A stretch of DNA of 64,000 nucleotides from a bacterium (GTDB lineage Bacteria; Vulcanimicrobiota; JAZDOK01), in assembly GCA_043798715.1 (NCBI GenBank), contig JAZDOK010000004.1:114537-178536 (forward strand), given 5' to 3'. The notes beneath the pieces are model-generated. The model made no database searches, was not told where the DNA came from, and saw only the letters and a program-made list of their open reading frames with translations. Numbering within the stretch: the first letter of the stretch is position 1; each line of letters starts with the position of its first letter. The position numbers and the translations under genes were made by a program. Below, one piece after another: positions 15,709-47,690 of this stretch.

Positions 15709-15739
15709 AGAAAACCGTCTTTCGCGTCCACTTCCAGGA
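15703..15739. repeat. Left copy of a perfect 37-bp direct repeat (aggtagagaaaaccgtctttcgcgtccacttccagga) bracketing the nucleotidyltransferase insertion
   Basis: Identical to 16593-16629. This left copy overlaps the ackA stop codon. Its reverse complement would encode the last roughly 12 codons (LEVDAKDGFLYL) of the 16574-17314 gene. Confidence 0.9.
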
Positions 15740-15864
15740 TGGCTCCACCAATATAAAAAATTCTAAATCAAAGTTATATGGTTTTCAGGGGGCGGGTCAA
15801 TTTCTTTCTTTATTGAAGTGCCAAATGGCATTTTCGGACAGCCTGTCAATGTCTTACCCTGGTG

Positions 15865-16377
15865 TTATTTGATTTCCAGGCGGCCGAGTTCGAGCAGGTT
15901 GTCAAAATCCTCCAAAGAGGACGGCTCCATCCTGGAAAAGAAGGCTCGGGCTTTGCGGATGTTTCCCTCATCGGCCAGGCCGAGCATCCGGGAGATGTCC
16001 GCCAGATCCTGGACCCTTCCGGAGCGAAACTTGAGGAGGATGAAAGATTCGAAGGGCAGGATGGGAAGACCCTGGGCGTCCCGGTTATAAGCGGCATTTC
16101 GGATGGCCTCCGCCTGCCACTCCTCTCGTGCCTCCAGAAGGTCCACCTCAATGCCTTCAGGCGAGTTCCAGGCGGAGCCGCCGATGGAAAGTTCCTGTTT
16201 AAATCCAAAACCCGCCCCTGCGAGGCGCCTGTGAACCTCACCTGCATGAGAAGCCTCTATGAAGACATCCAGGTCGGCCGTCGTTCTTTCCGGCATGTAG
16301 GCGCGGGTAGCGACGCCTCCCACGACGGCCCAGGGAATTTCCCCCAGTGCAGGTGTCAAATCAGGCCAGGTTTTCAT
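15865..16377 (-). CDS. Small nucleotidyltransferase-fold protein (minimal NTase family)
   Basis: hGGx(9-13)DhDh motif in WAVVGGVATRAYMPERTTADLDVFIE. AGGAGG RBS directly upstream of ATG 16377. I preferred this minus-strand call over the overlapping plus-strand ORF 15862-16392. Confidence 0.55.
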   Translation of the reverse strand: MKTWPDLTPALGEIPWAVVGGVATRAYMPERTTADLDVFIEASHAGEVHRRLAGAGFGFKQELSIGGSAWNSPEGIEVDLLEAREEWQAEAIRNAAYNRDAQGLPILPFESFILLKFRSGRVQDLADISRMLGLADEGNIRKARAFFSRMEPSSLEDFDNLLELGRLEIK

Positions 16378-16573
16378 CGCAGTCCTCCTTGAAAGAAATT
16401 CCCGGCTGGTGCCGGAGCCTGGCTTGGCCAGACGAAGGGACAGCCCTATCAGGAATTTTGTGGAGTCTCTTTTTGAAAGAGCCATCTGTTTTACTCCTCT
16501 TTTATTACCTGCAAAATTAGAGCAAGAAGTCAAGATCAGAGCCTCAGAGAAGAAATCTTTCTGAAATACCCGT

Positions 16574-17314
16574 TTATACCGCGCCGGCGATGAGGTAGAG
16601 AAAACCGTCTTTCGCGTCCACTTCCAGGAGCGACCCCTCCAACTTTGCCGGTATGATCTTCTCCAGGTCCACCGTTATTTCCCGGCCGTGCAGGGTCAAC
16701 CCCTCGCCCTGAATGTATTTCCTGGAGCGCTCCATGATGAAGGCCGTCAGGAAATTGGGGATCAAGATCAAAAAGAGCAGGCTGATGTTTTCGATTTTTA
16801 CGGCCAGTTGCCAGGGTCCTTTTACGGCCAGGACAACCTCCCCTGAGAACGGGAATAACTTATAGAAACCGTTGACGTGGATTCTTCCGCCTTCGCGGAA
16901 CTCAAATTTAAGGGAGAGATCCAGCGACTTGAAAAACTTCCGGCTGGAGGGGGAATTCAGCCATTCCCCGGACAGGATAACGGACAGATCTTCGAGTTTG
17001 AAGGTGGTGTCGGAAAGGGAATCCTTTATGCCGGGCTTATCCTCCGAATCGGCTGGCTCTGCGAGTTCTTCTTTGATGGAACCGTCCGAAAGGGAATCCT
17101 TTTTATCATTCGGTTCCTCTTCAGCGTCGCTCAAGGGAGCATCCAGAAGGAAGCTCAGTTTTTCAATCATCAGGCCCTGGAGTTCCCCCTGCCCCGCCTC
17201 CAGAGAATCCAGGGAGCATTTGAGTTTTATTCGGCCTTCCGGGGCTTCCAGCAGCTGGAAACGCAGCTTGTCAAGGGATATGAAATCCAGCAGGTCCTTG
17301 ATTGAATTTTTCAT
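16574..17314 (-). CDS. Hypothetical protein
   Basis: Long ORF with an acidic central region; no motif I recognise. Confidence 0.4.
   Translation of the reverse strand: MKNSIKDLLDFISLDKLRFQLLEAPEGRIKLKCSLDSLEAGQGELQGLMIEKLSFLLDAPLSDAEEEPNDKKDSLSDGSIKEELAEPADSEDKPGIKDSLSDTTFKLEDLSVILSGEWLNSPSSRKFFKSLDLSLKFEFREGGRIHVNGFYKLFPFSGEVVLAVKGPWQLAVKIENISLLFLILIPNFLTAFIMERSRKYIQGEGLTLHGREITVDLEKIIPAKLEGSLLEVDAKDGFLYLIAGAV
16593..16629. repeat. Right copy of the 37-bp direct repeat, lying inside the 3' end of the 16574-17314 gene
   Basis: Exact match to 15703-15739; the flanking similarity extends to about 46 bp with 2 mismatches. Confidence 0.9.
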
Positions 17315-21188: not shown

Positions 21189-21387
21189 GTCGTAATTTTA
21201 TTTCTTCAAGGCCCTTCCAAATCCTTTTTTCGTCACGCTCCCGGCCGCCTCGGGGGATTTTCCCATAAATTTCCTGAACATAGTTGACGAAATCTTTTGC
21301 GACTAATATACTAGGGGGGAAGAAGTTTCTTTACCTGAGAGAAATCGGGCATCTTCCATCAAGGGAAGGAGGTTTGGATCTCACGAC

Positions 21388-22740
21388 ATGAAAAACACAG
21401 CAATATGTCTGATTTTTCTGTTGATCATGGCCCTGGGGGGCGCATCTGCGGCCACCGCCCAGAGCGGGTTCACCCCGGTCTATGTCAACGGAGTCAGAAT
21501 CAATGTTTTTCCGGTTATCAAGGACGGGGTCGTCTTCCTGCCGCCCTACACCATGGCTCAATCACTGGGGGCCAGCATCAAGTATGACTACAGCCTGAAC
21601 ATTCTCAAGATCAACGACATCATGGTTTCAGCCACTCCGTACACTCCACCGGACGGCCAGATTCTTGTTCCGGCGGAGGCTCTTTGCCAGACCATCGGAG
21701 GCTCCCTGGAGTGGGATGGGCAGACCCGGGCCATTCGCATCACCACCCCCCGCTCGGGTGCCACTGTCGCCCAGCCCTATTCCCCGCCACCCATGGTTGC
21801 TCAGGCGCCGACAATCCCCAGTCTGGCTCCAATATCACCCACAATCACCGAACCGACGGGACCTTCCCCTTCATCCTCCTCCAAATCAGCCCCCAATCCT
21901 TACCAGGCCCAGGAAGCTCCTTTCCAGCCCCAGGCGGCACCCTACCAGCCATCCAATTCCGCCCCGAATCCCTACCAGGCCCAAACGTCTTCATCCTTTC
22001 CACCGCCCCCTTCCGGCTCTTCTTCCCTTTCATACTATCCGAGTGGCATTATCCCCATAACCACTCCTGTAACCACTAATAATCCACCTTACCAGCCCAC
22101 CGCTCCCTCATACAACCCCCCTGCTGCCGGCAACCAGGCGCCCGCCGGCAGTCCCCAAACCACCTCCCCTCAGGACACGATGAACTACAATCCGACAATG
22201 CCCCAGACGAGTTTCCCATCCGGCTCCATCTACCAGCAGCCGGCCTATTCAGCCAAATCCCCAACCTCCGCTCCCCCGCAGATCCCGTCATCAGTGCAGC
22301 AGCTCTCCCAGGCCACCATCTATAACCCCCCGGGGGCGGCTCCGCTGACTCCCAGCAACATACCGACTTTCTCCACCGACATTTTCCGGCCGGTCACGGC
22401 CAATAATTCGGTTTTTTCAGTGACCGTCACCAACATCGAAACCATGAATACCATTAAGGACTACTACAAGCCCAAGACCGGCTATAAATTTGTAACGGTC
22501 TACCTCTCCCAGCAGAACGTCTCAAATGAAGTGCAGATCTACACCGGCCGCTTCTCCATGCTTGACCAGAGCAACACCTCCTACGACTACGCCGAGCAGT
22601 TGAGCAACTTCTGGCTGATTATTCTCAAGCCGGGAGGAATCAACTTCGGATACCTGGTCTTTGAAGTGCCCCAGGATGCCAGACCCGCGCGCCTGCTTCT
22701 GCATGCGTTGAACCAGGCGCCGCTCAGCCTGAACTTGTAA
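21388..22740 (+). CDS. Secreted protein: Cu-amine-oxidase N-terminal-like domain, a Pro/Gln/Ser-rich linker, and a C-terminal DUF4352-like domain
   Basis: Signal peptide; VYVNGVRINVFPVIKDGVVFLPPY; roughly 200 aa of low-complexity P/Q/S/T/A sequence; C-terminal YKPKTGYKFVTVYLSQQNVSNEVQIY. Confidence 0.6.
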   Translation: MKNTAICLIFLLIMALGGASAATAQSGFTPVYVNGVRINVFPVIKDGVVFLPPYTMAQSLGASIKYDYSLNILKINDIMVSATPYTPPDGQILVPAEALCQTIGGSLEWDGQTRAIRITTPRSGATVAQPYSPPPMVAQAPTIPSLAPISPTITEPTGPSPSSSSKSAPNPYQAQEAPFQPQAAPYQPSNSAPNPYQAQTSSSFPPPPSGSSSLSYYPSGIIPITTPVTTNNPPYQPTAPSYNPPAAGNQAPAGSPQTTSPQDTMNYNPTMPQTSFPSGSIYQQPAYSAKSPTSAPPQIPSSVQQLSQATIYNPPGAAPLTPSNIPTFSTDIFRPVTANNSVFSVTVTNIETMNTIKDYYKPKTGYKFVTVYLSQQNVSNEVQIYTGRFSMLDQSNTSYDYAEQLSNFWLIILKPGGINFGYLVFEVPQDARPARLLLHALNQAPLSLNL

Positions 22741-24059: not shown

Positions 24060-24130
24060 TAGATATGCGGCTAATACGCTTGAGGGTTTGAACGCCTTCC
24101 AACACGGAAAGGAGGTTTAGATCTGACGAG

Positions 24131-24988
24131 TTGAAAAAAACAGCTTTATGCCTCGTTTTCCTGATGGTTATGGCCCTTCGGGGATCTCTTTCGGTCACCG
24201 CCCAGGGCGAATTCACCCGGGTCTATGTCAACGGGGTCATTGTCGATGTTTTCCCGGTCGTCAGGGAGGGAATAGTCTACCTGCCGCCCTATGTCATGGC
24301 TAAGTCGCTGGGGGCCAGCATCAGGTATGATTACAACCTGAAAATCCTCGCTATCAACGACATTATAATCCCTTTTTACACTCCCCCGGACGGCCGGACG
24401 CTGGTTCCCGTGGAAGAGCTCTGCCAGGCCATCGGATGCACCGTGGAGTGGGATGGGCGGACCCGGGCTATTCGGATCTCCACCTTCCCACCGGAGGTGA
24501 AACCTTCCCCGAAACCCACCGAAAATCCCTACGATAAGCAGTCTGTTCCCCTCCCCACCTCCACTCCGTCCTTTTTCCCCTCCGAAACTCCCATGCCAAC
24601 TCCCTTCAACCCAGGAAGCGACATCTTTATGCCGGTTACAGTCTCCAACGGAATTTTTTCGGTGACCGTCTCCGACATGAAAACAGTGAATGCCATAAAG
24701 GACTACTACAAGCCCAAGACCGGCTATAAATTTGTAACGGTCTACCTCTCCCAGCAGAACGTCTCAAACGAAGTGCAGATCTACTCAGGCCGATTCTCCA
24801 TGATTGACAAGAAAAACGCCACCTACGACTACGCCGAGCAGTTGAGCAACTTCTGGCTGATCATTCTCAGGCCTGGTGGAATCAACTTCGGATACCTGGT
24901 CTTTGAGGTGCCCCAGGATGCCAGACCCGTGCGCCTGCTCCTGCAGGCGAAGGCGCCGCTCAATATTAATTTGACAGGGGAGCGATAG
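24131..24988 (+). CDS. Secreted paralog of the 21388-22740 gene, lacking the low-complexity linker (TTG start)
   Basis: About 100 bp is nearly identical (1 mismatch) to 22455-22545, and the RBS region (ggaaggaggtttRgatctSacga) is also conserved. Confidence 0.6.
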   Translation: MKKTALCLVFLMVMALRGSLSVTAQGEFTRVYVNGVIVDVFPVVREGIVYLPPYVMAKSLGASIRYDYNLKILAINDIIIPFYTPPDGRTLVPVEELCQAIGCTVEWDGRTRAIRISTFPPEVKPSPKPTENPYDKQSVPLPTSTPSFFPSETPMPTPFNPGSDIFMPVTVSNGIFSVTVSDMKTVNAIKDYYKPKTGYKFVTVYLSQQNVSNEVQIYSGRFSMIDKKNATYDYAEQLSNFWLIILRPGGINFGYLVFEVPQDARPVRLLLQAKAPLNINLTGER

Positions 24989-37400: not shown

Positions 37401-38075
37401 GTGCCTGAGGCCTGGGGCTCGACCATTTTCAAAAAGGCCTGGAAGCAGGTTAAAACTCTCACTCTTCCACCCGGCTACCGCATCGAGATCGGCGGGGAAA
37501 TGGAGAAGCAGCAGGAAAACTTCCCCCCCATGGGCATGGCCATGCTGATGTCCATCGTCGGAATCTTCCTTTGCCTGGTGCTGCAGTTCAACAGCGCCGC
37601 CAAGCCCTTTATCGTATTTGCCGCCGTGCCCTTCGGTCTGGTGGGCGCCCTTGGAGGCCTTATTCTTACGCACATGCCCTTCGGCTTCATGGCCTTCCTG
37701 GGAATCGCCAGCCTGGTCGGGGTCATAGTTAGCCATATCATCGTGCTCTTCGACTACATCGAAGTCATGCACTCCGAGGGGAAACCCATCATTGAGGCGG
37801 TCATCGATGCGGGCCTGGCCCGTCTTCGCCCCGTTCTCATCACGGTGTGCGCGACGGTCTTCGCCCTCTTCCCGCTGGCGGCACACGGAGGACCCCTCTG
37901 GCAGCCCATGTGCTTTACTCAAATCGGCGGCCTGACCCTGGCCACCCTGGTCACCCTGGTGCTGGTGCCGACCATCTACTGCATCTTCGTCCTGGATCTC
38001 AAGATCGTGAAGTGGGAAACCGCCCCCGCGACGGAAGCGGAGGGTGCGCTACCGACGGGAAAGAAAGATTCCTGA
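34449..38075 (+). CDS. RND efflux permease (AcrB/HAE1-like), unusually long at 1208 aa
   Basis: 12-TM architecture with two large periplasmic loops and characteristic TM4/TM10 regions. Confidence 0.85.
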   Translation: MAHGKSDADYIKTTSNLARFCVNNPSVAIVFLLIAMGIGFLGYRSMPQRKDPDIPIRQAAVQVPWPGNTPMQIELQVTKKIEDICATNKNFKKIESTVQPGLSITYIELEDSIKDADKEFDDIGIKLINAAPSLPQGAGPIYYIKDFGDTAALMLTVASPPLSNVEIEARATPIVERINKTRAKRKIKSPGFPYTIVYCYPKNADMRLLQSTVGTFQIDAAVSGFARDIRLIQGEGFLGIDLLSTGSEQDVMAYLQNYMAHNLKLEEMNPDTWLPVVVQDPLQLKDRLSVAAPDRYTYREMDDFTRTIADGLRTVPLATSVGRKGALGEAIYLNYSQSRVAAYGFNPSKLPELLGARNITGASGTAQAEGQGILFQTAGQFKNQDEIGNMMIGQAQGSPVYLRDVVGITRSYNLPATYLNYLTWKNDAGAWHRNRAITISVQMKPGQKIHVLGKQIDDKLADLRRLVPSDLVIVRTSDQPRQVAENIELLNTALIEAVLLVVLVSLIGFWDWRSALLMALSIPLTLSMTYGCMSLLGLDLQQVSIASLIIALGLLVDNPVVAGDAIKVSMASGQPAKIAAWLGPTKLLKAITFATLTNIAAYVPLAFLPGDPGKFLYSLPLVVGSSLICSVIVAQAFVPTIGRFLLRPQKEASVEAMRTTGFTRYYYRFANFCVHHRWRVVGVSLVLLMLGLFLASSLPTQMFPDDEQYISTVDLYMPCNAGLMATNIKAKEVERAIGNIATKLGQDLTKRNKPDVHVIKTITTFVGGGGPRFWFSIQPEMSMLSYAQLIVECNDKHYTNTLVDRLMEQLPQQVAGVRIDVRKLQSGTSFKVPVQLYVSGSDNAWKPLVGLSNKIQQIYRADPQAMSIQDDWGEPIGTVNLEPDQDKANMVGITSLDVARSMALAVQGLPVGTVLEGQYSIPIIARLNSDERAQLSDLRNLYIYSSATGNKVLLSQVVKGNIDLSPYYIQRRNFHRCIKPGAFPVPEAWGSTIFKKAWKQVKTLTLPPGYRIEIGGEMEKQQENFPPMGMAMLMSIVGIFLCLVLQFNSAAKPFIVFAAVPFGLVGALGGLILTHMPFGFMAFLGIASLVGVIVSHIIVLFDYIEVMHSEGKPIIEAVIDAGLARLRPVLITVCATVFALFPLAAHGGPLWQPMCFTQIGGLTLATLVTLVLVPTIYCIFVLDLKIVKWETAPATEAEGALPTGKKDS

Positions 38076-38122
38076 ACTGACATAATCTTGCGTTATTAAA
38101 CGCTTACAAAGTTGATTGCGTG

Positions 38123-38150
38123 AAAGGCCAAGGTTATGCCTTGGCCTTTT
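38123..38150 (+). terminator. Rho-independent terminator after the RND operon
   Basis: aaaggccaagg-ttatg-ccttggccttt, a perfect 11-bp stem followed by TTTT. Confidence 0.6.
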
Positions 38151-38208
38151 AGCGCTCACCTCTTGACTTACCTTAAGGTAGGCTGTAAGATATATATGGA
38201 GGTATAAT

Positions 38209-38490
38209 ATGTTGGAATATATTTTGGGCGTTGAGGAGGCCAGAAAGAATCTGGGCGATTTGATCGTCCGTGTTGCCAGAAAAAAACAACCTGTTGTGAT
38301 CACCCGCCGGACGAAAGAAAAAGCGGTCCTTGTAAACTACGAAGAGTACAAGAAACTGGAAGAAATGGCGGAGTCGGTTGCGGCCAATGACGTTTCCCTG
38401 GCATTAAAAAGAATCAGACGTTCGGTGGCTGCTGAGGGATTATCGGTTGAGACGGTTGAAATGTCTATCCGCGAGGTTCGCGGCAGGTGA
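38209..38490 (+). CDS. Phd/YefM-family antitoxin
   Basis: N-terminus EARKNLGDLIVRVARKKQPVVITRRTKEKAVLVNYEEY; 4-bp overlap with the downstream PIN gene; a TTGACT-N17-TAAGAT promoter lies upstream. Confidence 0.7.
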   Translation: MLEYILGVEEARKNLGDLIVRVARKKQPVVITRRTKEKAVLVNYEEYKKLEEMAESVAANDVSLALKRIRRSVAAEGLSVETVEMSIREVRGR

Positions 38491-38894
38491 AAGTGGTCCT
38501 TGATACCAACACCCTGGTTTCAGCAATCGGCTGGTCGGGACCTCCCCAAAGAATTTTAAATGCGTGCTTGCAAGGAAAATTCGAGCTTTACATCAGCCAG
38601 GCTCTCCTGGAGGAATTTATCCGGGTCATTTCCCGACCGAAACTCAAGGTTATTGCGCAGCATCCGGATTTGCCCTTGATATTATCCTGGCTCTATCAGC
38701 CATCGCACATCGTTCGCCCCAAAACCGTTATCAATGCCATTAAGAAGGACCCCGCGGACAACAAAGTGCTTGAATGCGCCGTGGAAGCAGGCGCCGAGGT
38801 TATAGTTTCCGGCGACAAGCACCTTCTTGCCCTGGAGGAGTTTCAAGGGATCCAAATACTGACGCCCGCCGCTGCAACCAGATTGTTTTTATAG
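38487..38894 (+). CDS. PIN-domain toxin (TIGR00305-type)
   Basis: VLDTNTLVSAI..., and conserved acidic residues of the PIN fold. Confidence 0.7.
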   Translation: MKVVLDTNTLVSAIGWSGPPQRILNACLQGKFELYISQALLEEFIRVISRPKLKVIAQHPDLPLILSWLYQPSHIVRPKTVINAIKKDPADNKVLECAVEAGAEVIVSGDKHLLALEEFQGIQILTPAAATRLFL

Positions 38895-38967
38895 CCTCCG
38901 CACCTTATTTCCCCAGCAACCGATCACTAATTCCATACCCATGTCCCCTTCATTTTTCCCCCATATT

Positions 38968-40203
38968 CTACCACGATATATCCGGCCAATCACTCATTAA
39001 AAGTTGGCGAATCTGAGTGGCTGGGAAATCGTTATTATTTGCAATGCGCAAGGCCAGGTTCTGAATAAATTTCACGGAGACCGCAGGTTTTCCAAGAGCG
39101 GCGGCGGCGTCTCTCAGTGCGTCGACCGCTCTGACCAGAGTTGCCCACTCGATTTCGTAGCCGTATCCTTCAAGAAGCAGGTCCATGGCCCGCAAGGCCA
39201 CGGCGAACGAGAATTCGGGAGCGTCAAACCTGTTCTGATAAGCAGCCGTTATTAACGTGCCGGGGTTCAGTGTCCCATTTAAGGCGCACGTGTAAGCAAT
39301 ATCCATATGTCCGGCACTGCCGGCCGCTGCGAACCAGTTTCCGGGGTTGTCCGAATCGTCAATGAGATCCTGGAGGATGCGCCGGGTTTCGAGCTGCGGA
39401 TATTTTTTTACGATCGCACGATACTGGTTGAGATAGGTGTGGCCTACCCGGAGAAAGCGGCCATATTGCTTATAAGCCTGCTCCCAATGGCCCTCCTCTA
39501 TCAAGAGACGCTCGCAGAAACAGGTTATGGCCGTATCATCGTATCCCAGCGGGGAGCGGCAGTCTTCGGCGAAAGAAATAGCTTCTTCGATTTTCCCCTG
39601 GCGGCGCAGAGCTTCCGCCCAATAGTATTGCTCGGACCAATGTCGGTGGGAAGCTGATTTTAAAAGCGATTGGAGTTCATTATATCGTCCGGCTTCCAGC
39701 AGGCAGGAGAAGCACATGATGTTGTCCGGTGAATAGATGAACTTTCCGGAAAGCGAGGATAAGCTCGAGACCAACTCCAACAATCGGTCCGCCCACTCGC
39801 GGATCAGGTCCGGCTCTTTGCAAATTATCCCCCAAATCCGGCGCACCTGAAAAAGATAGTCAACGCCGTCATCCTGAACGGCCGAATAAAGCCTGTCAAT
39901 CCATTTGCGCCTGGTGGCCGTATCAGCCGGCGCCTGGACAAGGAGGGGAAGGAGTTTGTCAAGCGTGAGCCAGACGGCTGTCCCAAGTGCCCCCGAGGAG
40001 GAGTCCACCGCCTGAAGCGCCGGCCAGAGGCGTTCGCAAAGAGTCACGACGCCCTCCCCGGCACGAATAGGATCGGCCTTCGATGTTCGCTTGATCTCCG
40101 AAGTTGCCTCATTCAGCCTTTTACAGGCCAAAACAGACCCCCGCCACCCGAAGGCTCTGGTTCTTAAATATCGCTTAAACTGCCAAGCCGCTGACGTCGT
40201 CAT
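38968..40203 (-). CDS. Hypothetical 411-aa alpha-helical protein inside the toxin-antitoxin/defence island
   Basis: No recognisable motif; a possible TPR-like stretch (YYWAEALRRQGKIEEAISFAED). Confidence 0.4.
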   Translation of the reverse strand: MTTSAAWQFKRYLRTRAFGWRGSVLACKRLNEATSEIKRTSKADPIRAGEGVVTLCERLWPALQAVDSSSGALGTAVWLTLDKLLPLLVQAPADTATRRKWIDRLYSAVQDDGVDYLFQVRRIWGIICKEPDLIREWADRLLELVSSLSSLSGKFIYSPDNIMCFSCLLEAGRYNELQSLLKSASHRHWSEQYYWAEALRRQGKIEEAISFAEDCRSPLGYDDTAITCFCERLLIEEGHWEQAYKQYGRFLRVGHTYLNQYRAIVKKYPQLETRRILQDLIDDSDNPGNWFAAAGSAGHMDIAYTCALNGTLNPGTLITAAYQNRFDAPEFSFAVALRAMDLLLEGYGYEIEWATLVRAVDALRDAAAALGKPAVSVKFIQNLALRIANNNDFPATQIRQLLMSDWPDISW

Positions 40204-40342
40204 TATTTTTCAATTCTTTTAAATGATTTGAATTTGACCTGATAGCTTAAGGTCGTCCAGATTTCGGTTTCAAGACTCTTGACATTCTCTACATTCGTGT
40301 TGACGGAGAAATCAATTCCGATTCGGGGAAAAGAGGATACTG

Positions 40343-40398
40343 CCTTTTTAGCACGGCAGATTCTCATTCGGCGTAAAAGGCTCTGACCCCTTTATTCC
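40343..40398. repeat. Junction repeat, modules W-X (cctttttagcacggcagattctcattcggcgtaaaagg + ctctgacccctttattcc)
   Basis: Matches 44461-44515 with a few mismatches. Confidence 0.8.
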
Positions 40399-40450
40399 TG
40401 GCGAAACGAGGACGACGACAGGGCAGGAGCATCAGCGACAGCCTCAAATA

Positions 40451-40750
40451 TCAGGAGGCGCGTGGCAGCTTTCGGATGTCTTTTAATTCCTCTTCAATCC
40501 TCTGTTTTTCTTCATCCAGGTCGTAGTCGTTCTGGAGGCCGAGCCAGAACTGGGGGGAATTTCCGAAATAACAGCTGAATCTAAGAGCCGTATCTGCAGT
40601 AATTCTCCGCTTCTTTTTCAGAATCTCAGAAATTCTCGTCTGGGGTATTTTAGTTTCTTTCGCAAGGCGATAGGGTGTGATCCCGAGCGGTTTTAAGAAC
40701 TCCTCATCCAGTACCTCCCCCGGATGGATGTTTGCAAGTTTCAGCATCAT
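40451..40750 (-). CDS. higA: HigA-family antitoxin (XRE helix-turn-helix)
   Basis: IHPGEVLDEEFLKPLGITPYRLAKETKIPQTRISEI matches the HigA helix-turn-helix. Confidence 0.85.
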   Translation of the reverse strand: MMLKLANIHPGEVLDEEFLKPLGITPYRLAKETKIPQTRISEILKKKRRITADTALRFSCYFGNSPQFWLGLQNDYDLDEEKQRIEEELKDIRKLPRAS

Positions 40751-40765
40751 TTCACCTCTATTTCT

Positions 40766-41047
40766 CTAATGATAGTCAACGATTTCTACGTTATAACAAT
40801 TCCCGTTTTGCCATTCGAAACAAATCCTCCATCGGTCATTGATGCGGATGCTGTACTGTCCTTCCCGATCGCCTTTTAGCCTTTCAAGAAAATTCGAGGG
40901 CGGCACCCGCAAATCATTGAGCATATGGGAATTATTGAGCATCCTTAACTTTCTCCTGGCGATGGCCTGAATGTCAAAAGGCAATTTTCTCGAAGGGAGG
41001 CCATCCCATATTTTTCTGGTTTCTTTCGAGCGAAATGACTGAATCAC
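40766..41047 (-). CDS. higB: HigB toxin (RelE/ParE superfamily)
   Basis: FRSKETRKIWDG...NDRWRICFEW..G.CYNVEIVDYH; toxin-first HigBA gene order. Confidence 0.85.
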   Translation of the reverse strand: MIQSFRSKETRKIWDGLPSRKLPFDIQAIARRKLRMLNNSHMLNDLRVPPSNFLERLKGDREGQYSIRINDRWRICFEWQNGNCYNVEIVDYH

Positions 41048-41302
41048 AGCACTATAGTATCACATCGCGTTACTATTGTCAAAAAGCAGCAATCAAGGGG
41101 ATATGCCTACACAGAACTAAGTAAGATGTCCCCATAAATGTTAGGAGGATGACAGAATCCCTGGGTAATTAAGGTGACATATTCCCTGGGGAAGGACACC
41201 GGCACGAAGGAAAAGGAGAACCGGGCAAAAATCTTGAATTTTCCCTTGGAACAAGTTTTACGCGTTCCGTCTAATTATTATTAGACCACAGGGATGGGAT
41301 GA

Positions 41303-41618
<316 letters not shown>

Positions 41619-41646
<28 letters not shown>

Positions 41647-41712
41647 GCTTTGTCGTAAAGGGCTCTGACCCTTTTCCCCCTATTCTGTCAATTGTGTAGA
41701 CGTGACCCCTAT
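41619..41712. repeat. Junction repeat, modules Y-X-Z; module Y overlaps the 3' end of brnA
   Basis: Y = cagccgacgcacaggaacgcgcggctgagctttgtcgt (identical at 44517-44554). X = ctctgaccctttt. Z = tattctgtcaattgtgtagacgYgacccctat (also at 43040-43071 and 44585-44617). Confidence 0.85.
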
Positions 41713-41713
41713 G

Positions 41714-42976
41714 TCATAAGGCAAACCAGGGATAGACAATCGTTCCAGCTCTTTTAAAGGACGAATCCCCGCCATACACAAGAGCGGCCGGATCGTTGGA
41801 GCGGCTGGAGAGATTCCGCCAGTCATTCAATCCTTTGAAAAAGTCGCCCGCAATGGTCTGAGCTGATTTAACCTCCACCGGAGTCAGCCGGCCACCCTGT
41901 TCGACGAGGAGATCCACCTCCCGTCCGGATGTGTCACGCCAGAAACTCAGGGCAGGCAGCTCGCCCCGGTTCAAGAAGTTCTTGTAGAATTCGGATAAGA
42001 CGTAACTTTCAAAAATGCCGCCCTTCATCGCGTGATGGTGAAGCTCCTCCGGGAATCGAATCTGAAGAAGGAAGCACAAAAGACCGGTGTCCAGGAAATA
42101 AAGCTTCGGGCTTTTGATAAGGCGTTTCCCGAAGTTCTGGTGATGAGGTCTGAGAAGCACGATCAGAAAGCTGGCCTCCAGAACCGAAATCCAGCGTCTT
42201 GCGGTCGTATGCGTGATGCCGCAGTCTGAGGCCAGGGACGACAAATTTAACAGCTGGGCGTTCCGACCGGCACAGAGCCGGACAAATCGGCCGAAGGACT
42301 CCAGGTCGCCCATCTTCAAAACATTCCGGACGTCCCGCTCCAGGTAAGTCTGGTAATAATTTCCCAGCCAGTCCTGCGGGGGTAGCCTTTTGTCGTGAAT
42401 CCGTGGATAAAAACCTGTAAAAAGGACTTCTGCCAGTTTTTTTCCCGGTGCTCCGGTACCCTGATAAGTTTTTCTTCCCAGTTCCGAAAGAGTAAAAGGC
42501 TTATGACCGGACAGTTCGGCATGGGAAAACGGCAAAAGGTGCAGAACGGCACATCGTCCGGCCAGAGATTGGGAAATGCCCTGGAGAAGGAGAAAATTAT
42601 GCGAGCCTGTCAGGATGAATTGTCCCGCTTTATTCTGTTCATCCACCATGACTTGAATATAGGAAAACAAGTCCGGGACGCGCTGGGCTTCGTCCAGAAT
42701 AACCGGGCCTTCAAACTGCGAGAGAAACCCCCGGGGATCTTCCATAGCAAAAGCGCGTTGATCGGGAAGCTCTAGAGTTGAGTAGGCGTAATCTTTAAAT
42801 ACGGCTCTGACCAGGGTGGTTTTGCCCGATTGACGCGGCCCCGTGACTGTTACGACCGGATATCGGCCGGCGGCCTCCTTGAGTTTTTTCGCCAGGGTTC
42901 GAGGAATCATGGCCGTACCTCTTTTGCTATTTGAATATCCAATATTCAATTTACATGATATCTCGAATTTTGTCAA
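41714..42976 (-). CDS. AAA+ ATPase with a C-terminal DUF4143 domain (COG1373-type)
   Basis: Walker A GPRQSGKTT, Walker B VILDEAQ, and a C-terminal DUF4143-like region. Confidence 0.75.
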   Translation of the reverse strand: MTKFEISCKLNIGYSNSKRGTAMIPRTLAKKLKEAAGRYPVVTVTGPRQSGKTTLVRAVFKDYAYSTLELPDQRAFAMEDPRGFLSQFEGPVILDEAQRVPDLFSYIQVMVDEQNKAGQFILTGSHNFLLLQGISQSLAGRCAVLHLLPFSHAELSGHKPFTLSELGRKTYQGTGAPGKKLAEVLFTGFYPRIHDKRLPPQDWLGNYYQTYLERDVRNVLKMGDLESFGRFVRLCAGRNAQLLNLSSLASDCGITHTTARRWISVLEASFLIVLLRPHHQNFGKRLIKSPKLYFLDTGLLCFLLQIRFPEELHHHAMKGGIFESYVLSEFYKNFLNRGELPALSFWRDTSGREVDLLVEQGGRLTPVEVKSAQTIAGDFFKGLNDWRNLSSRSNDPAALVYGGDSSFKRAGTIVYPWFAL

Positions 42977-42999
42977 CCGATGGAGGCAGACTTCTCCTC

Positions 43000-43093
43000 A
43001 AGGGCAGCCTGCCCCCTTTATTCTCGGCATCTTTTCCCCTATTCTGTCAATTGTGTAGACGCGACCCCTATATCCTTCGACCCCTATATCCTT
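43000..43093. repeat. Junction repeat, diverged X plus Z, followed by a tandem 16-bp duplication (cgacccctatatcctt, twice)
   Basis: Module Z lies at 43040-43071; the 16-mer copies are at 43062-43077 and 43078-43093. Confidence 0.8.
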
Positions 43094-43361
43094 GCCTCCA
43101 GGAAAATGATTGTTTCTTTCCCGGATAGATCCGACATAAAAAGTATTTTTCCTACTGAATTGGAAAACTATTTTCTGACAGCCTGTGCCCCCAATGTCAC
43201 CCGTTCGCCCTGAGCCTGTCGAAGGGCAAGACCCATCCGTTCATGGTTCGACAAGCTCACCACGAACGGAAACGAAGCGAGAAGGAGAAAGGAGACGCTT
43301 GTTTTTTTCAGGGAATTCGTGACTGGCACAAATTATTCAATTTCCATTTTCGGACAGCCTG

Positions 43362-44348
43362 TCAAGGCTTGTCCTTCGTTGGCGGCGGCAATTGCTTGAC
43401 GGCGCGGTCGAAGTCGGATTCGAGGTGCCGATCCTCGATATTGCGAAACTCGACGAACTCGCGTTCCGAGTGGGTTCGGGCCAACTCGGCCGACACTTTA
43501 CCGGCGTTCTGTAATATTTCCCGGTCGTTCAATGTCAAAAAACCCTCCAGCTTCGTGATCCAATCGTTCATCGTCATGGCTATCCGACGCTCGGCCTGGG
43601 ACTCGGCAAAGATGAGATACTGTTCGACGAGGTTATTGAGCGCACGCAGCTCTTCTTCATTTAAATAGTTTTTTGCAATGGCGACGTCCGATTTGCGGAT
43701 ACGCGCCCCCTCCCAGTTAGTGAGACCCATGTTCGGCATTCTGCTGTCAGCGCGGAACAAGATAACCTCGACGGCGGTCTGGCCGTGAATAGCGTAATGC
43801 ACCTTGTTTTGCACCGTAGCGAAGAACTCCTGGGTGAGCGGGTGGTCCTTGTCGTAGTCTATGCTCGTGGCGTAGATGTCTGTGATTTTCTGGTAAAAAC
43901 GCCGCTCGCTCGTGCGGATATCCTGGATGCGCCGGGTGAGCTCCTCGAAGTAGTCGTTTCCTGCTTTCGGGTTTTTCAGACGCTCGTCATCCAGCACAAA
44001 GCCCTTGATGATGTACTCTTTAAGCTTGTCTGCGGCCCACTGACGGAAGCGCACGGCCACCGGGCTACGCACCCTGAAACCCAGGGCCAGGACCATGTCG
44101 AGGTTGTAATGAGCCACCTCGTACTGTTTACCGTCTGCGGCAGTTGTTCGGAAAAACCGAACAACTGAATCTTCCTCCAGTTCTTCGTCCTCAAAGATGT
44201 GTTTGATGTGTTCACTGATGGTGCCCTTGGCCTTGCCGAACAACTCCACGAGCTGCTTCTGGTTGAGCCAGATGTTCCGGTCTTCGAGGCGAACGTCGAG
44301 TTTCGTGCGGCCGTCCTCGCTCTGGTAGATGAGAATCTGGTTCATCAC
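43362..44348 (-). CDS. RhuM-family protein (virulence/defence-associated, DNA-binding)
   Basis: N-terminus IYQSEDGRTKLDVRLEDRNIWLNQKQLVELFGK...VRFRQWA; overall pattern like rhuM. Confidence 0.7.
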   Translation of the reverse strand: MMNQILIYQSEDGRTKLDVRLEDRNIWLNQKQLVELFGKAKGTISEHIKHIFEDEELEEDSVVRFFRTTAADGKQYEVAHYNLDMVLALGFRVRSPVAVRFRQWAADKLKEYIIKGFVLDDERLKNPKAGNDYFEELTRRIQDIRTSERRFYQKITDIYATSIDYDKDHPLTQEFFATVQNKVHYAIHGQTAVEVILFRADSRMPNMGLTNWEGARIRKSDVAIAKNYLNEEELRALNNLVEQYLIFAESQAERRIAMTMNDWITKLEGFLTLNDREILQNAGKVSAELARTHSEREFVEFRNIEDRHLESDFDRAVKQLPPPTKDKP

Positions 44349-44460
44349 AGGCTCCTCACGTTTAGTAGCCCGTGCTGGCTGAGGATGGCGGCAAGGTTGG
44401 TCTTGGCGACATCATCGGCAAAGGCGCTGTCACGGAAGACGCAAGAGAAAAGAGGACAGA

Positions 44461-44617
44461 GCCTTTTTAAGCACGGCAGATTCTAATTCGTCGTAAAGGG
44501 CACTGTCCCCTTTATCCCAGCCGACGCACAGGAACGCGCGGCTGAGCTTTGTCGTTCGTCGTAAGGGGCTCTGACCCTTTTATCCTTATTCTGTCAATTG
44601 TGTAGACGCGACCCCTA
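44461..44617. repeat. Most complete junction repeat: modules W-X-Y-(tail of W)-X-Z
   Basis: Contains a copy of the 3' end of brnA (module Y) detached from any brnA gene. Confidence 0.85.
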
Positions 44618-44744
44618 TGACCTTGAATTTTCCCTCCCAGATCATCTCCTTAAAAAAAACATGAAGTCGAGCATCCCGACTGATTGTACCACACCCACTG
44701 TGACAAAGACTGTCATTGTGATTTCAGATGACGATTTTTTTATA

Positions 44745-44784
44745 TAATCCCCGGCATAAACCTGATTGCCTCGCCCATTGCCAA
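44745..44784. repeat. Left imperfect direct repeat flanking the NERD cassette
   Basis: aatccccggcataaacctgattgcctcgcccattgccaag, compared with 45784-45833 aatccccggcatcgacctgatttaccctcccccttgccag. Confidence 0.75.
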
Positions 44785-44965
44785 GGAAGTCCAATTGAAG
44801 CCCCTCTACTGTCACCAATAGAAAATCATCTCAATTTCGCCGTTTTCCCCTGCATGCAAGAAAAAAGACCTGTCACAGACCGCCTTTCCCCCGCCAAAAA
44901 GGTGTGGCGGCCACTTTTGTATAATTGAAACCAATAAAAATTTTTCCAAAAAACGGAGTGAGTGT

Positions 44966-45766
44966 ATGCAAGAGGCTAAAAAAAGAACAGGTAAAAAATC
45001 TCCCATAAAAAAAGCACCTCTTCGTCTTCCCGGACAGTTCTTGGATGAGAAGATAAAAGATATAAAGTATGACATGCTATGGAATGTCTTTGTGTGCCTT
45101 ATGTATTTAACTTCGCTTGTAATCGCATGGCTGTTCTACTTGTTCCCAAAGACATTTTTGTTGCCTCTTTTACTTCTACTGACCCTTGTTTCTGTACTTG
45201 TTTTTATTTTCTATGGGACAAGAATTTCTAAACAATGGAAGGAAATAGACAACCACAAGCTCGGCCGCGTCGGGGAAATAGAAGTCGGGCAGACCTTGGA
45301 AAAATTACGAGAGCAGGGCTGCCGGATCTTTCACGACATTCAGATGGGAAATTATAATATCGATCATGTCGTTTTATCTACTAAGGGGGTTTTCGTGATT
45401 GAGACGAAGACGCGAAGAAAACCGGCAGAAGGCCGCACTGAGATTGTTTATGAGGGTGATTTGATTAGAATAAACGGTTCGCCGAATAAAACTGACATTG
45501 AGCAGGCAAAAAGTCAGGCCTGCGGTTTTCATAAATTTTTCAAGCTAATTACAGGGAATTCTTATTTTGTAAGGCCTGTTATTGTGTATCCTGGTTGGTA
45601 TGTGACTTCTTCTTTTGATCCCGAGAAAAGCGATATGTGGGTGCTAAACCCCGATCAACTCAGTCAAAAGATCGCAGCTCAACCTGAAGTCATCAAACCC
45701 AAGGAACTGGAGACTATTGCAAATCAATTGGAATACCATATACGCGAAAAATCTGATTTAAAGTAG
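44966..45766 (+). CDS. NERD-domain (nuclease-related) protein with N-terminal TM helices
   Basis: GRVGEIEVGQTLEKLREQGCRIFHDIQMGNYNIDHVVLSTKGVFVIETKT is the NERD core. GC content is about 38% against roughly 60% for the surrounding genome. Confidence 0.75.
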   Translation: MQEAKKRTGKKSPIKKAPLRLPGQFLDEKIKDIKYDMLWNVFVCLMYLTSLVIAWLFYLFPKTFLLPLLLLLTLVSVLVFIFYGTRISKQWKEIDNHKLGRVGEIEVGQTLEKLREQGCRIFHDIQMGNYNIDHVVLSTKGVFVIETKTRRKPAEGRTEIVYEGDLIRINGSPNKTDIEQAKSQACGFHKFFKLITGNSYFVRPVIVYPGWYVTSSFDPEKSDMWVLNPDQLSQKIAAQPEVIKPKELETIANQLEYHIREKSDLK

Positions 45767-45783
45767 ATACATTTTTTAAATAA

Positions 45784-45833
45784 AATCCCCGGCATCGACC
45801 TGATTTACCCTCCCCCTTGCCAGAACAGGAGTA
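45784..45833. repeat. Right imperfect direct repeat flanking the NERD cassette
   Basis: See 44745-44784. Confidence 0.75.
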
Positions 45834-46042
45834 TCGACGGGAGAGGTTGTGAGCCACAGAGCGAAAGCGCTGGATCGAAGAAGGTTAAAGTGAAGGCTTC
45901 GTAGAGATAACGGCTCTGGGTAGAGCAGACCTTTAGGTCTGCAAAACTAGCTTCATGCCCCCGCACAGTCATCGTCCTAATCATGGCGTCCACCGGTACT
46001 TTTTCATCCGGCTTCTCGGCTTTTCAGGGAAGTTCGAACCCT

Positions 46043-46249
46043 TTATTTCAAGACCTCCCACCGCCCGCCCTTGTCGGGGCCGATTCGTTTCAAGCAGCCG
46101 TGCATCTTGCACATGGCGATGACACGGTTTGTCCCACGGCCCCAGACCTCCACCGCTCCGGCACGGTGGAAGAGGTCGGCTGTAGTGGGGTTTCGCAGAA
46201 GGTCTGTAAGTTGCCTTGATTCAGTGAAATTTCGCATGTTATTCCCCAT
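46043..46249 (-). pseudogene. C-terminal fragment of an AlbA_2/HATPase_c_4-type putative transcriptional regulator
   Basis: ADLFHRAGAVEVWGRGTNRVIAMCKMHG resembles the conserved C-terminus FRRxGLIERWGSGIxRI of that family; the ORF is only 68 aa. Confidence 0.4.
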
Positions 46250-46481
46250 AGTACCTATTTTATTACTCGTTTAATCAGGTATTACCTGTTTCCCTTTTTC
46301 CATGTTGCATCCCGTCCTCGTCCAAGGCACTCCACCCTTTTGACACGGTTCTCTTTTTTCAGCACTTTGCGTATCATATCAACGCTCCCCCCTCTGCCTA
46401 ATTCTTCAAATAATGAGATGAAACCGGCCATAATTCCTCCGCTTGGGAGGAAAGATGAGGCGTTTACCTAATTATTGACAG

Positions 46482-47690
46482 GTGAGGATTCTTTTTGTCC
46501 ATCAGTTTTTTACGACCGAGAAGGAGCCGGGAGAGGTGCGGCATATCGAGATGTTCCGCCATCTCGCCAAAGACGGCCACGAGTTTTTCATAATCGGCGG
46601 AGCATTGAACTACCTGACCGGAAAGCTCTATCCTGATTTTAAAGGTCCGGTACAGGAGATAGACCTGGGGAATCCGGCCCTCCGCTTTATCCGGGTCCCT
46701 GCGGCCCCCACCTACCGGAAGGGATTTGCCGGACGACTCTGGACCTACCTCACCTTTGCCGCCAATGCCCTCCGAGCGGGCCTTAAAGCCCCCAAACCCG
46801 ACCTGGTGATGACGACCTCCCCTTCTCTCTTCCCCGCCCTCTCCGGATACATTTTAAGCCGCCTCAAGGGCGTCCCCTGCCTCTTTGAAATCCGCGACCT
46901 CTGGCCCCGGGCCCCCATTGAAATGGGCCTTCTTAAAAACAAGGCCGTCATCGCGTTTTCCTACTGGCTGGAAAAGTATCTCTGCCAAAGGGCTGAGAAG
47001 ATAGTGGTCATTACGCAGGGCTATAAGGATTACCTGGTCTCGCGGGGCATCCGGGCCGAAAAAATTCACATCGTCCCCAACGGCGTGGACGAATGGATGC
47101 TCGATTACCAGGGCTCTCCCCTGCCCCAGGAACTGGCCTCTCTTAAAGACAAATTCATCGTGGCCTATGCCGGGGCCATCGGGAAATTCAACCACTTGAG
47201 CGAACTAATCGGGGCGGCGGAAATCTTAAGAAATGAAAAGGACATCGCTTTCATACTCATCGGGGATGGAAACGACCGGGAGAATCAGGAGAGAGTCTGC
47301 CGGGAGAAAAATCTGGATAACGTTATCTTTCTCGGTTTAAAACAAAGGCAGGAAATCCCGGCTTTCCTCCAGGCGGCGGATCTTACCGTCGTCATCCATC
47401 CGCCCATCCCCTTAAGCCGCCTCCTCCTTCAGAACAAGGTGCTCGACTGCCTGGCCCTCGGGAAATTCATCCTCCTGGTCTCCGAGGAAGGCGACACGTC
47501 CAGGATCATCGAGGAGGCCGGGTGCGGCGAGCGTCTTCCCTACGGCCCGGGTGAGCTCGCCAAAAAGATTTTATGGTGCCGCGATCACCGGGACGAATGC
47601 CGGAATATGGGCGAGCGGGGACGCAAATATGCCCGGGAGCACTTCCTGCGCAAAGACCTGGCAGGGAAACTGGGGGAGATACTGGCCTGA
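46482..47690 (+). CDS. Glycosyltransferase family 4 (GT-B, WbuB-like)
   Basis: MRILFVHQFF N-terminus and a C-terminal GT4 E-x7-E-like region; probable GTG start. Confidence 0.75.
   Translation: MRILFVHQFFTTEKEPGEVRHIEMFRHLAKDGHEFFIIGGALNYLTGKLYPDFKGPVQEIDLGNPALRFIRVPAAPTYRKGFAGRLWTYLTFAANALRAGLKAPKPDLVMTTSPSLFPALSGYILSRLKGVPCLFEIRDLWPRAPIEMGLLKNKAVIAFSYWLEKYLCQRAEKIVVITQGYKDYLVSRGIRAEKIHIVPNGVDEWMLDYQGSPLPQELASLKDKFIVAYAGAIGKFNHLSELIGAAEILRNEKDIAFILIGDGNDRENQERVCREKNLDNVIFLGLKQRQEIPAFLQAADLTVVIHPPIPLSRLLLQNKVLDCLALGKFILLVSEEGDTSRIIEEAGCGERLPYGPGELAKKILWCRDHRDECRNMGERGRKYAREHFLRKDLAGKLGEILA

Follow-up and report, generated by a model that had tools for sequence, protein, structure and literature searches.

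Introduction

How is an island of accessory genes assembled, and refilled from strain to strain, when no recombinase gene lies beside it? Genes for defence and toxin-antitoxin systems often gather in slots between core genes that are free of mobility genes, and the route by which such slots are filled is debated. Here we analyze a slot of this kind in an uncultured lineage of the Vulcanimicrobiota (GTDB lineage JAZDOK01). It lies within a 64,000-nucleotide stretch of DNA (GenBank assembly GCA_043798715.1, contig JAZDOK010000004.1, positions 114,537 to 178,536 of the forward strand), hereafter called the window, to which unmarked coordinates refer. An island of toxin-antitoxin pairs and candidate defence genes lies between an RND pump gene and a GT4 gene, and the junctions between its genes carry short modules, named W, X, Y and Z, in changing combinations. 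A preliminary description, made from the letters alone, compared the layout with an integron cassette array or with repeated site-specific integration into one hotspot. The explanation we favor, at a probability of about one half, is a mosaic repeat cluster that resembles repetitive extragenic palindromes (REPs) in bacterial interspersed mosaic elements (BIMEs), or the Neisseria intergenic mosaic elements (NIMEs). The cluster would sit in a hotspot of the minimal mobile element (MME) type and would have been built by serial insertion, local duplication and erosion.

Results

Four junctions share a set of hairpin repeats

Copies of W, X, Y and Z were confined to four segments of the island, with a chance expectation of about zero:

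J1, 40328..40400, plus strand: W-X; the inner stem folds, and the sequence is identical to 44447-44518 at 62/73 positions.
J2, 41617..41713, plus strand: Y (the 3' end of brnA, a GC-rich hairpin), X and Z1.
J3, 42999..43093, plus strand: X', a 15-nt spacer, Z2 and then the 16-mer CGACCCCTATATCCTT twice in tandem.
J4, 44447..44619, plus strand: W-X1-Y-X2-Z3, with a 65-nt hairpin (z = -3.0).

Allowing up to 20% mismatches, we found no further copy of any of the four modules in the rest of the window. Chance expectations were obtained from dinucleotide-preserving shuffles. Z (32 nt) has three copies with 0-1 mismatch, at 41681, 43040 and 44587 (expected 0.00), the W core has two, at 40350 and 44470 (expected 0.00), and a pattern search for X gave four (expected 0.04). 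The proposal that the junctions reuse the same modules was thus confirmed, and the combinations were those first described, except that W-X begins 15 nt further left, at 40328 and 44447.

A profile search for X returned seven significant copies, five direct and two inverted, all of them in the island. The two inverted copies are the left 20 nt of each W, and W is therefore not an independent module: in W-X two X units form a head-to-head doublet, the left one inverted and separated from the right one by a 12-nt spacer, and this doublet is present twice. X itself is a hairpin of 20-30 nt, AAAGGG-N6-CCCTTT, with a stem of 6-8 bp, a loop of 6-7 nt and a C-rich tail (TCC/CCC, versus CCA in the REP consensus). 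One nucleotide from the stem it carries a tag, which reads CGTC in X1 and X2, TGTC in J2, CCTC in J3 and CGGC in J1. X', at 42999, is a variant hairpin (GGGCA/TGCCC) in which the CCTTTATTCT tail is retained. The W-X doublet folds as a 65-nt imperfect hairpin at 44445-44522, and the outer stem is degraded in the copy at 40328. All four modules of the original scheme are accordingly real repeats, but W-X resolves into an X doublet and Y is a gene relic (see below).

X has four different neighbors on its 3' side, all of which begin at the same nucleotide, and Z likewise has three. Such ends, fixed against differing neighbors, are defined ones and not ragged homology. The 3' part of Z is a 15-16-mer, CGACCCCTAT(ATCCTT), which is similar to the tail half of X and is doubled in tandem after Z2. 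Of the CCCCTAT 7-mers that were said to flank Z, the left one was present at Z1 and Z2 but absent at Z3. Modules occupy four of the eight island junctions, and the W, Y and Z copies, the X singlets and the right-hand units of the doublets all share one orientation.

Other identities for the modules were considered. The X (32 nt), Y (36 nt), X (32 nt) arrangement is not a mini-CRISPR, since Y is the end of brnA and the X copies are merely 87% alike. W-X as a transposon with target duplications was rejected because the flanks do not match. A promoter scan gave no support for Z as a promoter; it gave a weak promoter-like match in X1/W on the minus strand, and X had a weak terminator score on the plus strand. 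An Rfam search of the whole island at E <= 1 returned one chance-level match only.

Junction repeats might also be produced by a metagenome assembler that linked alternative versions of one hypervariable locus, each from another strain, end to end by way of short sequences common to them. The window does come from a contig of a metagenome-assembled genome (MAG), and the locus is hypervariable among strains. The longest exact repeats, however, measure 40 nt (Y) and 32-36 nt (Z), and the final k-mers of assemblers are usually longer than 32-40 nt. The copies also differ in their flanks, and the X variants include a 7-nt indel, so that the junction copies are distinct sequences and not one reused graph node. 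We consider such an artefact very unlikely.

The fourth junction is a deletion derivative

Y (41617-41656 and 44516-44555) is 40 nt long and 100% identical between its copies. It spans the last nine brnA codons, the stop codon and 10 further nt, in agreement with the earlier statement that it is a copy of the brnA 3' end, there measured as 38 bp. A basic C-terminal tail of this kind is found in BrnA homologs too, and in several of them it ends in ..ARG. Y is hence authentic brnA sequence, the gene's 3' end, and not mobile sequence read into it.

When J1 (W-X) and J2 (Y-X-Z) were joined in silico, the product was identical to J4 at 151 of 174 positions (86.8%). The distance between copies is 4119 bp for W-X and 2899 bp for Y, a difference that fits the 1,216 bp (40401-41616) missing from J4. 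Together these results identify J4 as a second copy of the 1.4-kb segment 40328-41713 minus 1,216 bp. Two toxin-antitoxin pairs are located in this segment:

40451..41047, minus strand: the HigB toxin gene (40766-41047) and the HigA antitoxin gene (40451-40750), assigned with Pfam.
41310..41646, plus strand: a truncated brnT (41310-41405, 32 codons) and an intact brnA-type antitoxin gene (41404-41646).

J4 is thus a duplicated higBA-brnTA segment from which both pairs have been deleted. A loss of this kind could presumably be tolerated only as long as the antitoxins were provided by the first copy.

The same data bear on plain segmental duplication and decay, with no repeat family involved. 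Under that explanation a DNA circle that carried a diverged higBA-brnTA copy, the ATPase gene and rhuM integrated by homologous recombination into the resident copy, and the redundant copy was reduced to W-X joined to Y-X-Z and to X'-Z. The derivation of J4 from 40328-41713 by loss of 1,216 bp and the nature of Y as a gene relic count in its favor, the perfect 40-nt Y is long enough to host a crossover, and redundant toxin-antitoxin loci are known to erode (PMC13617665). It leaves unexplained why X occurs twice in J4 around Y, why the left arm of W is an inverted X, why the X' hairpin and tail are found with a different stem, and why four sequences abut X at the same nucleotide. We regard segmental duplication without a repeat family as possible but unlikely.

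The interval between the RND and GT4 genes is a hotspot

DNA homology to the related loci L005, L006, L007 and L008 ends at 38030-38080 and restarts at 46445, and on this basis the island was set at 38081-46444 (8.4 kb). Close relatives of the GT4 protein are 92, 89, 80 and 80% identical, and the flanks of the window are 87-96% identical to those of the relatives. The interval between these flanks occurs in five states:

Window, 38081..46444, no strand: the strain-variable island, which fills the hotspot; the RND stop codon is at 38073-38075.
L007: interval empty, with the conserved flanks about 20 bp apart.
L005, L006 and L011: a different antitoxin with a PIN_3 toxin, rhuM relics, a 23-bp tandem repeat and an HNH_2 gene.
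L008: an FlgD_ig protein, an RHS toxin and a 261-aa gene.
L010 (a more distant relative): another gene, and a patch in common with window 44683-44735.

Interval contents among the relatives also include a helicase-like gene. The PIN_3 toxin of L005 is 36% identical to that of the window; both occupy the first slot, beside unlike antitoxins. The interval is an insertion hotspot, empty or differently filled in close relatives, and the hotspot part of the preliminary description was correct.

To look for enzymes of mobility, about 50 long open reading frames (ORFs) from all parts of the window were searched with Pfam; about 40 of them measured 150 aa or more, and the others were shorter ORFs of the island. 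As first reported, no integrase or transposase was among them: the scanned ORFs contained no recombinase or transposase domain, including the Y1/HUH transposase domain. The window has a single tRNA gene, distant from the island, and a tRNA-derived attachment (att) site was rejected for this reason. Two conserved genes that enclose a variable filling, here in five states, are the hallmark of an MME. Exchange solely by homologous recombination in the flanks would suit a window without mobility genes and flanks of 87-96% identity, yet direct repeats bracket several of the units.

Gene content of the island

In addition to the two pairs given above, the island and its right edge contain the following features:

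38209..38894, plus strand: a Phd/YefM antitoxin gene (38209-38490) and a PIN_3 toxin gene (38487-38894), assigned with Pfam and NCBIfam.
38968..40203, minus strand: a 411-aa protein of unassigned function, with only sub-threshold TPR-like Pfam matches.
41714..42913, minus strand: an ATPase with AAA_14 and DUF4143 domains (Pfam; PADLOC candidate PDC-S01, E 1.7e-109).
43362..44390, minus strand: rhuM with a conserved leader of 42 nt (Pfam; PADLOC candidate PDC-S05).
44735..45814, plus strand: a low-GC NERD gene (44966-45766) with a bracketing 42-nt direct repeat.
46043..46249, minus strand: a fragment of an HATPase_c_4-type gene (pseudogene relic), sub-threshold at 24.4 bits versus a cut-off of 26 (E 2.9e-5).
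46445..46481, plus strand: the right boundary of the hotspot, GGGAGGAAAGATGAGGCGTTTACCT..., kept in L005, L007, L008 and L010, immediately 5' of the GT4 start.

The earlier gene calls were upheld. Pfam confirmed Phd, PIN, HigB, HigA, the AAA+/DUF4143 protein, RhuM, NERD and GT4, the last with a GTG start codon at 46482. HigA matched HTH_3 in Pfam and TIGR02607 (antidote_HigA, E 2.7e-30) in NCBIfam. The truncation of BrnT was verified, as the fragment aligns with residues 2-32 of the 94-aa toxin 7vd7 (E 2.6e-7). The intact BrnA was supported by 2,092 homologs of the same 70-95-aa type, but no curated model matched this ORF. The regulator fragment corresponds to the HATPase_c_4 piece, though its score lies below the curated cut-off. 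The GC content of the NERD gene is indeed low (40% versus 54% for the window). No match to the 411-aa protein was found in PADLOC, NCBIfam, PHROGs or PDB sequences. Exact-sequence look-ups of this protein, NERD, GT4, BrnA and HigA gave no match. The ATPase and RhuM are candidate single-gene defence proteins in PADLOC. The ATPase gene has a promoter-like site at 42976-42948, and its stop codon (41714) directly adjoins Z1.

At the right boundary, 46455-46478 includes a strong GGAGG of the Shine-Dalgarno type, together with a mini-ORF of seven codons, ATGAGGCGTTTACCTAATTATTGA, that ends 3 nt before the GT4 GTG. This mini-ORF may be a leader peptide or a device for translational coupling.

The modules are not integron recombination sites

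The modules had been described as unlike canonical attC sites, and this was borne out. We scanned both strands of 38000-46600 for an RYYYAAC...GTTRRRY pair, at least 6/7 complementary and 40-160 nt apart. No such core pair was found on either strand, and attC sites were rejected on this result. AAC and GTT, the two triplets most strongly conserved in attC (PMC4889954), are both missing from the W-X sequence. Folding, which had been suggested for the modules, did yield the 65-nt W-X hairpin (z = -3.0), but it lacks attC features. The analogy with an integron cassette array also failed. Island genes lie on both strands (in order + + - - - + + - - +) and only four of the eight junctions have modules, which departs from a co-oriented layout with one ORF per site.

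A looser version of the analogy is a non-canonical array in which the W-X hairpins are folded single-strand sites of an unlinked recombinase. This would be an attC-less counterpart of a CALIN (attC sites in a cluster that has no integron-integrase). CALINs are common, usually without a nearby intI remnant, and the island resembles them in its small, promoter-poor accessory genes (toxin-antitoxin genes included), its palindromic repeats in one orientation and the absence of a nearby integrase (PMC4889954). W-X is a bulged imperfect palindrome of 65-72 nt, attC-like in size (z = -3.0), the modules all point the same way, and a cargo of toxin-antitoxin pairs and small unknown genes is like that of chromosomal integrons. 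The island differs from a CALIN in having no attC features, mixed gene orientation, repeats at only half of its junctions and a gene relic among the repeats. Moreover, W-X is devoid of AAC/GTT triplets, and an R''/R' box pair is absent from the whole island. W-X occurs just twice, with 4.1 kb and four gene units from one copy to the other, and the outer stem of J1 is degraded. Genes on both strands, and Pfam-scanned window ORFs without any intI-like gene or relic, complete the case against this reading, which we judge to be highly improbable.

Single-gene units and their bracketing repeats

The DNA of rhuM is 90-92% identical to that of four loci in other contexts (L012-L015). This similarity stops exactly at the stop codon and, on the 5' side, at 44368 or 44390, i.e. 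20-42 nt upstream of the start. Limits of this kind indicate an ORF-sized unit that moves horizontally into unrelated contexts. The protein is 84-94% identical in MAGs labelled Methanosarcinales, Wallbacteria, Nitrospirota, Chloroflexi and others, and in L014 and L015 its gene lies in restriction-modification operons. No relatives of rhuM or of the ATPase gene were found in viral contigs, and the modules were not found around the closest rhuM homologs. Searches for Z and W in viral contigs and for J4 in plasmids and phages gave nothing related. In the window, a short ORF tail (a truncated gene fragment) lies upstream of rhuM.

On the unrelated contig L012 (5257-7625), rhuM splits, about 73 codons in, a gene homologous to that of the 411-aa protein (49% identity to its first 71 residues), and the rhuM unit is followed by a ResIII gene, which is truncated, and by an ATPase with DUF4143. 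The rhuM fragment is bracketed there by repeats particular to that genome, one of 99 nt (three copies, 88-98%) and one of 27 nt (two copies, 100%). Junction repeats at accessory fragments are hence not unique to the window.

Several further units in this lineage are bracketed by direct repeats. The 42-nt repeat around the NERD gene (44735-44776 and 45773-45814) is 79% identical between copies, and the homology to L010 (window 44683-44735) halts exactly at the first of them. In the L005 island, a 25-nt sequence from upstream of GT4 is duplicated (8169-8193 and 9910-9934) and encloses the rhuM relics, the 23-bp tandem repeat (about four copies, related to 38916-38937), the V module (listed below) and HNH_2. 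Far from the island, a 57-nt direct repeat (15683-15739 and 16573-16629, 89%) copies the 3' end of a 246-aa gene (16574-17314, minus strand). Its left copy now provides the last ackA codons, and the two copies bracket an 890-bp insert (15740-16572) with one ORF of about 207 aa, for which no match was found in Pfam, PADLOC, NCBIfam or PHROGs and beside which no recombinase was found. The bracketing repeat differs for the NERD unit, the L005 unit and the insert beside ackA, which makes one att-specific enzyme unlikely as their common cause.

These units are relevant to tandem site-specific integration, in which small integrative elements have X-Z, or the GACCCCTAT motif inside it, as their attachment core. 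First the ATPase unit and then the rhuM unit would have inserted, each duplicating the site, with an integrase that acted in trans or was lost. X-Z does occur in three direct copies, spaced at 1359 and 1547 bp, that enclose exactly two single-gene units, and the module ends are sharp and identical against different neighbors. Direct 15-16-mers (GACCCYTWTATCCTT) recur like arm-type binding sites, one pair in tandem, and the other direct-repeat-bracketed units (NERD, the L005 unit, the insert beside ackA) can be counted in its favor. Against it, no recombinase domain was found in the 64-kb window, and Z, read from the sequence, has no inverted-repeat core of the type bound by tyrosine or serine recombinases. 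The different repeat around each of the other units points to a generic process rather than to an att-specific enzyme, the truncated fragment upstream of rhuM and the Y relic suit ragged recombination better than precise cassettes, and units of 1.4-1.5 kb are too small to hold an integrase. We assign tandem integration a low probability. A dif/Xer-type or other recombinase core in Z was rejected by the same lack of inverted-repeat arms.

Other repeats and traces of turnover were as follows:

38916..38937, plus strand: the 22-mer U, GCAACCGATCACTAATTCCATA, in single copy; related 23-bp units form about four tandem copies at L005 8277-8368.
41199..41246, plus strand: the V module, which consists of a hairpin and CTTGAATTTTC and lies upstream of brnT; 45 bp of it match L005 8512-8556 at 97.8% identity.
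43170..43365, plus strand: a 17-nt direct repeat, ATTTTC(T/G)GACAGCCTGT, around a 159-bp segment.
44683..44735, plus strand: the T patch, also upstream of GT4 in L010 (BLAST aligns 33 bp at 97%; by eye the patch measures about 50 bp).

The V module precedes brnT in the window and the HNH_2 gene in L005, and its tail, CTTGAATTTTCCCT, recurs at 44622, right after Z3. Erosion is seen in the truncated brnT, the HATPase_c_4 fragment and the rhuM relics of L005.

Within the 159-bp segment (43187-43345; core 43200-43273) we observed a palindromic element of 72 bp, CCGTTCGCCCTGAGCCTGTCGAAGGGC...GGTTCGACAAGCTCACCACGAACGG. Its core has unannotated matches of 78-82% in Moraxella, Sphingobium, Sphingomonas and Comamonas plasmids, up to five per record; it is a small repeat common across phyla. 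Its typical spurious peptides gave no result in a full-text search. The motif ATTTTCGGACAGCCTGT(CAA), which includes the palindrome GACAG-C-CTGTC, has three matches in the window versus 0.07 expected (15830-15849, 43170-43186 and 43346-43365). Two stand directly 3' of inserted minus-strand genes, one overlapping the rhuM stop codon and the other 16 nt beyond the ORF beside ackA, and the third, an island copy, is degenerate. Diverged direct repeats at 21353-22676 and 24096-24918 (78-87% over 108-300 nt) correspond to two Cu_amine_oxidN1 + DUF4352 paralogs; with a solute-binding protein gene between them, they represent ordinary gene duplication.

Discussion

We return to the reading of the island as a REP/BIME- or NIME-like mosaic repeat cluster in an MME-type hotspot. 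Single genes or pairs, of toxin-antitoxin or candidate defence type, would have been repeatedly inserted, replaced and eroded in the slot between the RND and GT4 genes. New DNA would enter mainly by recombination, through the conserved flanks or through repeats. Breakpoints would fall at the hairpin repeats, which would also offer the short homologies by which neighboring segments are duplicated, joined and deleted; short flanking pieces (Y, Z) would have been duplicated along with X copies, and redundant toxin-antitoxin copies would then have been lost. Any enzyme that moves or cuts X, such as a REP-type transposase or the integrase of a phage or element, would be encoded elsewhere in the genome. 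The preliminary interpretation was in this respect half right: the cassette-like hotspot with reused modules is real, and its modules are REP/NIME-like, not attC-like. The generic REP-like element that had been named as its refuting alternative now looks like the closer description of the modules.

In a more speculative variant, X-Z and W-X are recognition sites of a putative unlinked recombinase or single-strand transposase that takes up and shuffles single-gene units (ATPase, rhuM, higBA-brnTA) at a chromosomal hotspot. We think this quite improbable. If true, it would amount to an integron-like cassette system with hairpin sites unrelated to attC, and would also explain the other direct-repeat-bracketed single-gene units of the lineage. 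Likewise, should the repeats prove limited to accessory junctions, this would point to a novel cassette-handling enzyme. The case presented here combines an empty site, four other fillings and one strain whose junctions consist of hairpin repeats with defined ends. Its junction repeats, gene relics and deletion derivative form a readable record of insertion, duplication and erosion.

REPs are palindromes of 20-40 bp with an unpaired GTAG or CGTC tag and a short tail; the CGTC tag is often altered to TGTC or CCTC, and head-to-head dimers predominate (PMC3733652). In the four CGTC families described, loops are 4-5 nt and stems 8-9 bp (PMC3733652). X is likewise a small imperfect palindrome with a C-rich tail and, in four of its five direct copies, a CGTC, TGTC or CCTC tag. 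It forms head-to-head doublets with a larger hairpin, as in REP, BIME and REPIN elements (PMC3733652), and the doublets go together with reiterated flanking DNA (W-X twice; X1-Y-X2 in J4). Clusters that carry co-duplicated flanking DNA, and a position mostly downstream of ORFs, are further shared traits (PMC3733652 and PMC2817692). RAYT genes (REP-associated tyrosine transposases) are absent from the window; they are typical of GTAG REPs, and none are known for CGTC REPs.

Several observations weigh against our preferred explanation. REPs are normally abundant and dispersed, with tens to thousands of copies, whereas the seven X units lie in one 8.4-kb island. There are zero copies of X in the other 56 kb of the window (about 4 kb of intergenic DNA) and zero in about 170 kb of compared loci, close relatives included. 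An exact 20-mer of Z was absent from species-representative genomes and JGI metagenomes, except for chance matches in Haliea, and only one genome carries the junction modules. The tags of X are CGTC, TGTC, CCTC and CGGC, of which the last, in J1, is imperfect, and loops of 6-7 nt with stems of 6-8 bp fall outside the CGTC families. REPs alternate in BIMEs, whereas the X singlets and right-hand doublet units face one way, and J4 lies between divergent genes, not downstream of ORFs. Finally, divergence between the duplicated copies is uneven (Y 36/36, Z 32/33, X 21/32, W-X 62/73), which a single duplication does not predict. With all seven X units in one island and loop and stem sizes off-family, membership in the REP class is plausible but unproven.

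Among known defence hotspots, the cDHS1 and cDHS2 loci of P. aeruginosa and the hotspots of E. coli have core flanks and variable content that includes an empty state (PMC10250203). The same source describes defence and toxin-antitoxin cargo with a GC content unlike that of the flanks, and proposes transfer by homologous recombination in the flanks, which resembles the present case. Those hotspots span tens of kb and were defined in thousands of genomes, versus 0-8.4 kb in five or six metagenomic relatives here, and junction repeat mosaics were not found mentioned in the searched passages of PMC10250203.

The closest parallel comes from Neisseria, where dRS3 (ATTCCC-N8-GGGAAT) and RS modules form intergenic mosaic elements (PMC3898611); dRS3 belongs to family CGTC-1 (PMC3733652). 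Like dRS3, X (AAAGGG-N6-CCCTTT) is a repeat of the 20-nt class with 6-bp terminal inverted repeats, and it is interleaved with short modules in intergenic arrays beside variable genes. The dRS3/NIME arrays are proposed sites of integration and deletion and are thought to promote exchange of adjacent genes (PMC3898611). Neisseria MMEs consist of a conserved gene pair that encloses different whole-gene cassettes in each strain, with no mobility gene, as does the slot described here (PMC3898611). The two systems differ in scale, with about 700 dRS3 copies per genome versus seven X units in one island and arrays of 200-2700 bp versus 70-175 bp. They have no sequence similarity, and natural transformation and a filamentous-phage integrase are documented in Neisseria, not for this host. 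The combined REP/NIME and MME picture nevertheless fits the island better than any other, and it suggests that the coupling of mosaic intergenic repeats with gene-swapping hotspots, as in Neisseria, may be more widespread.

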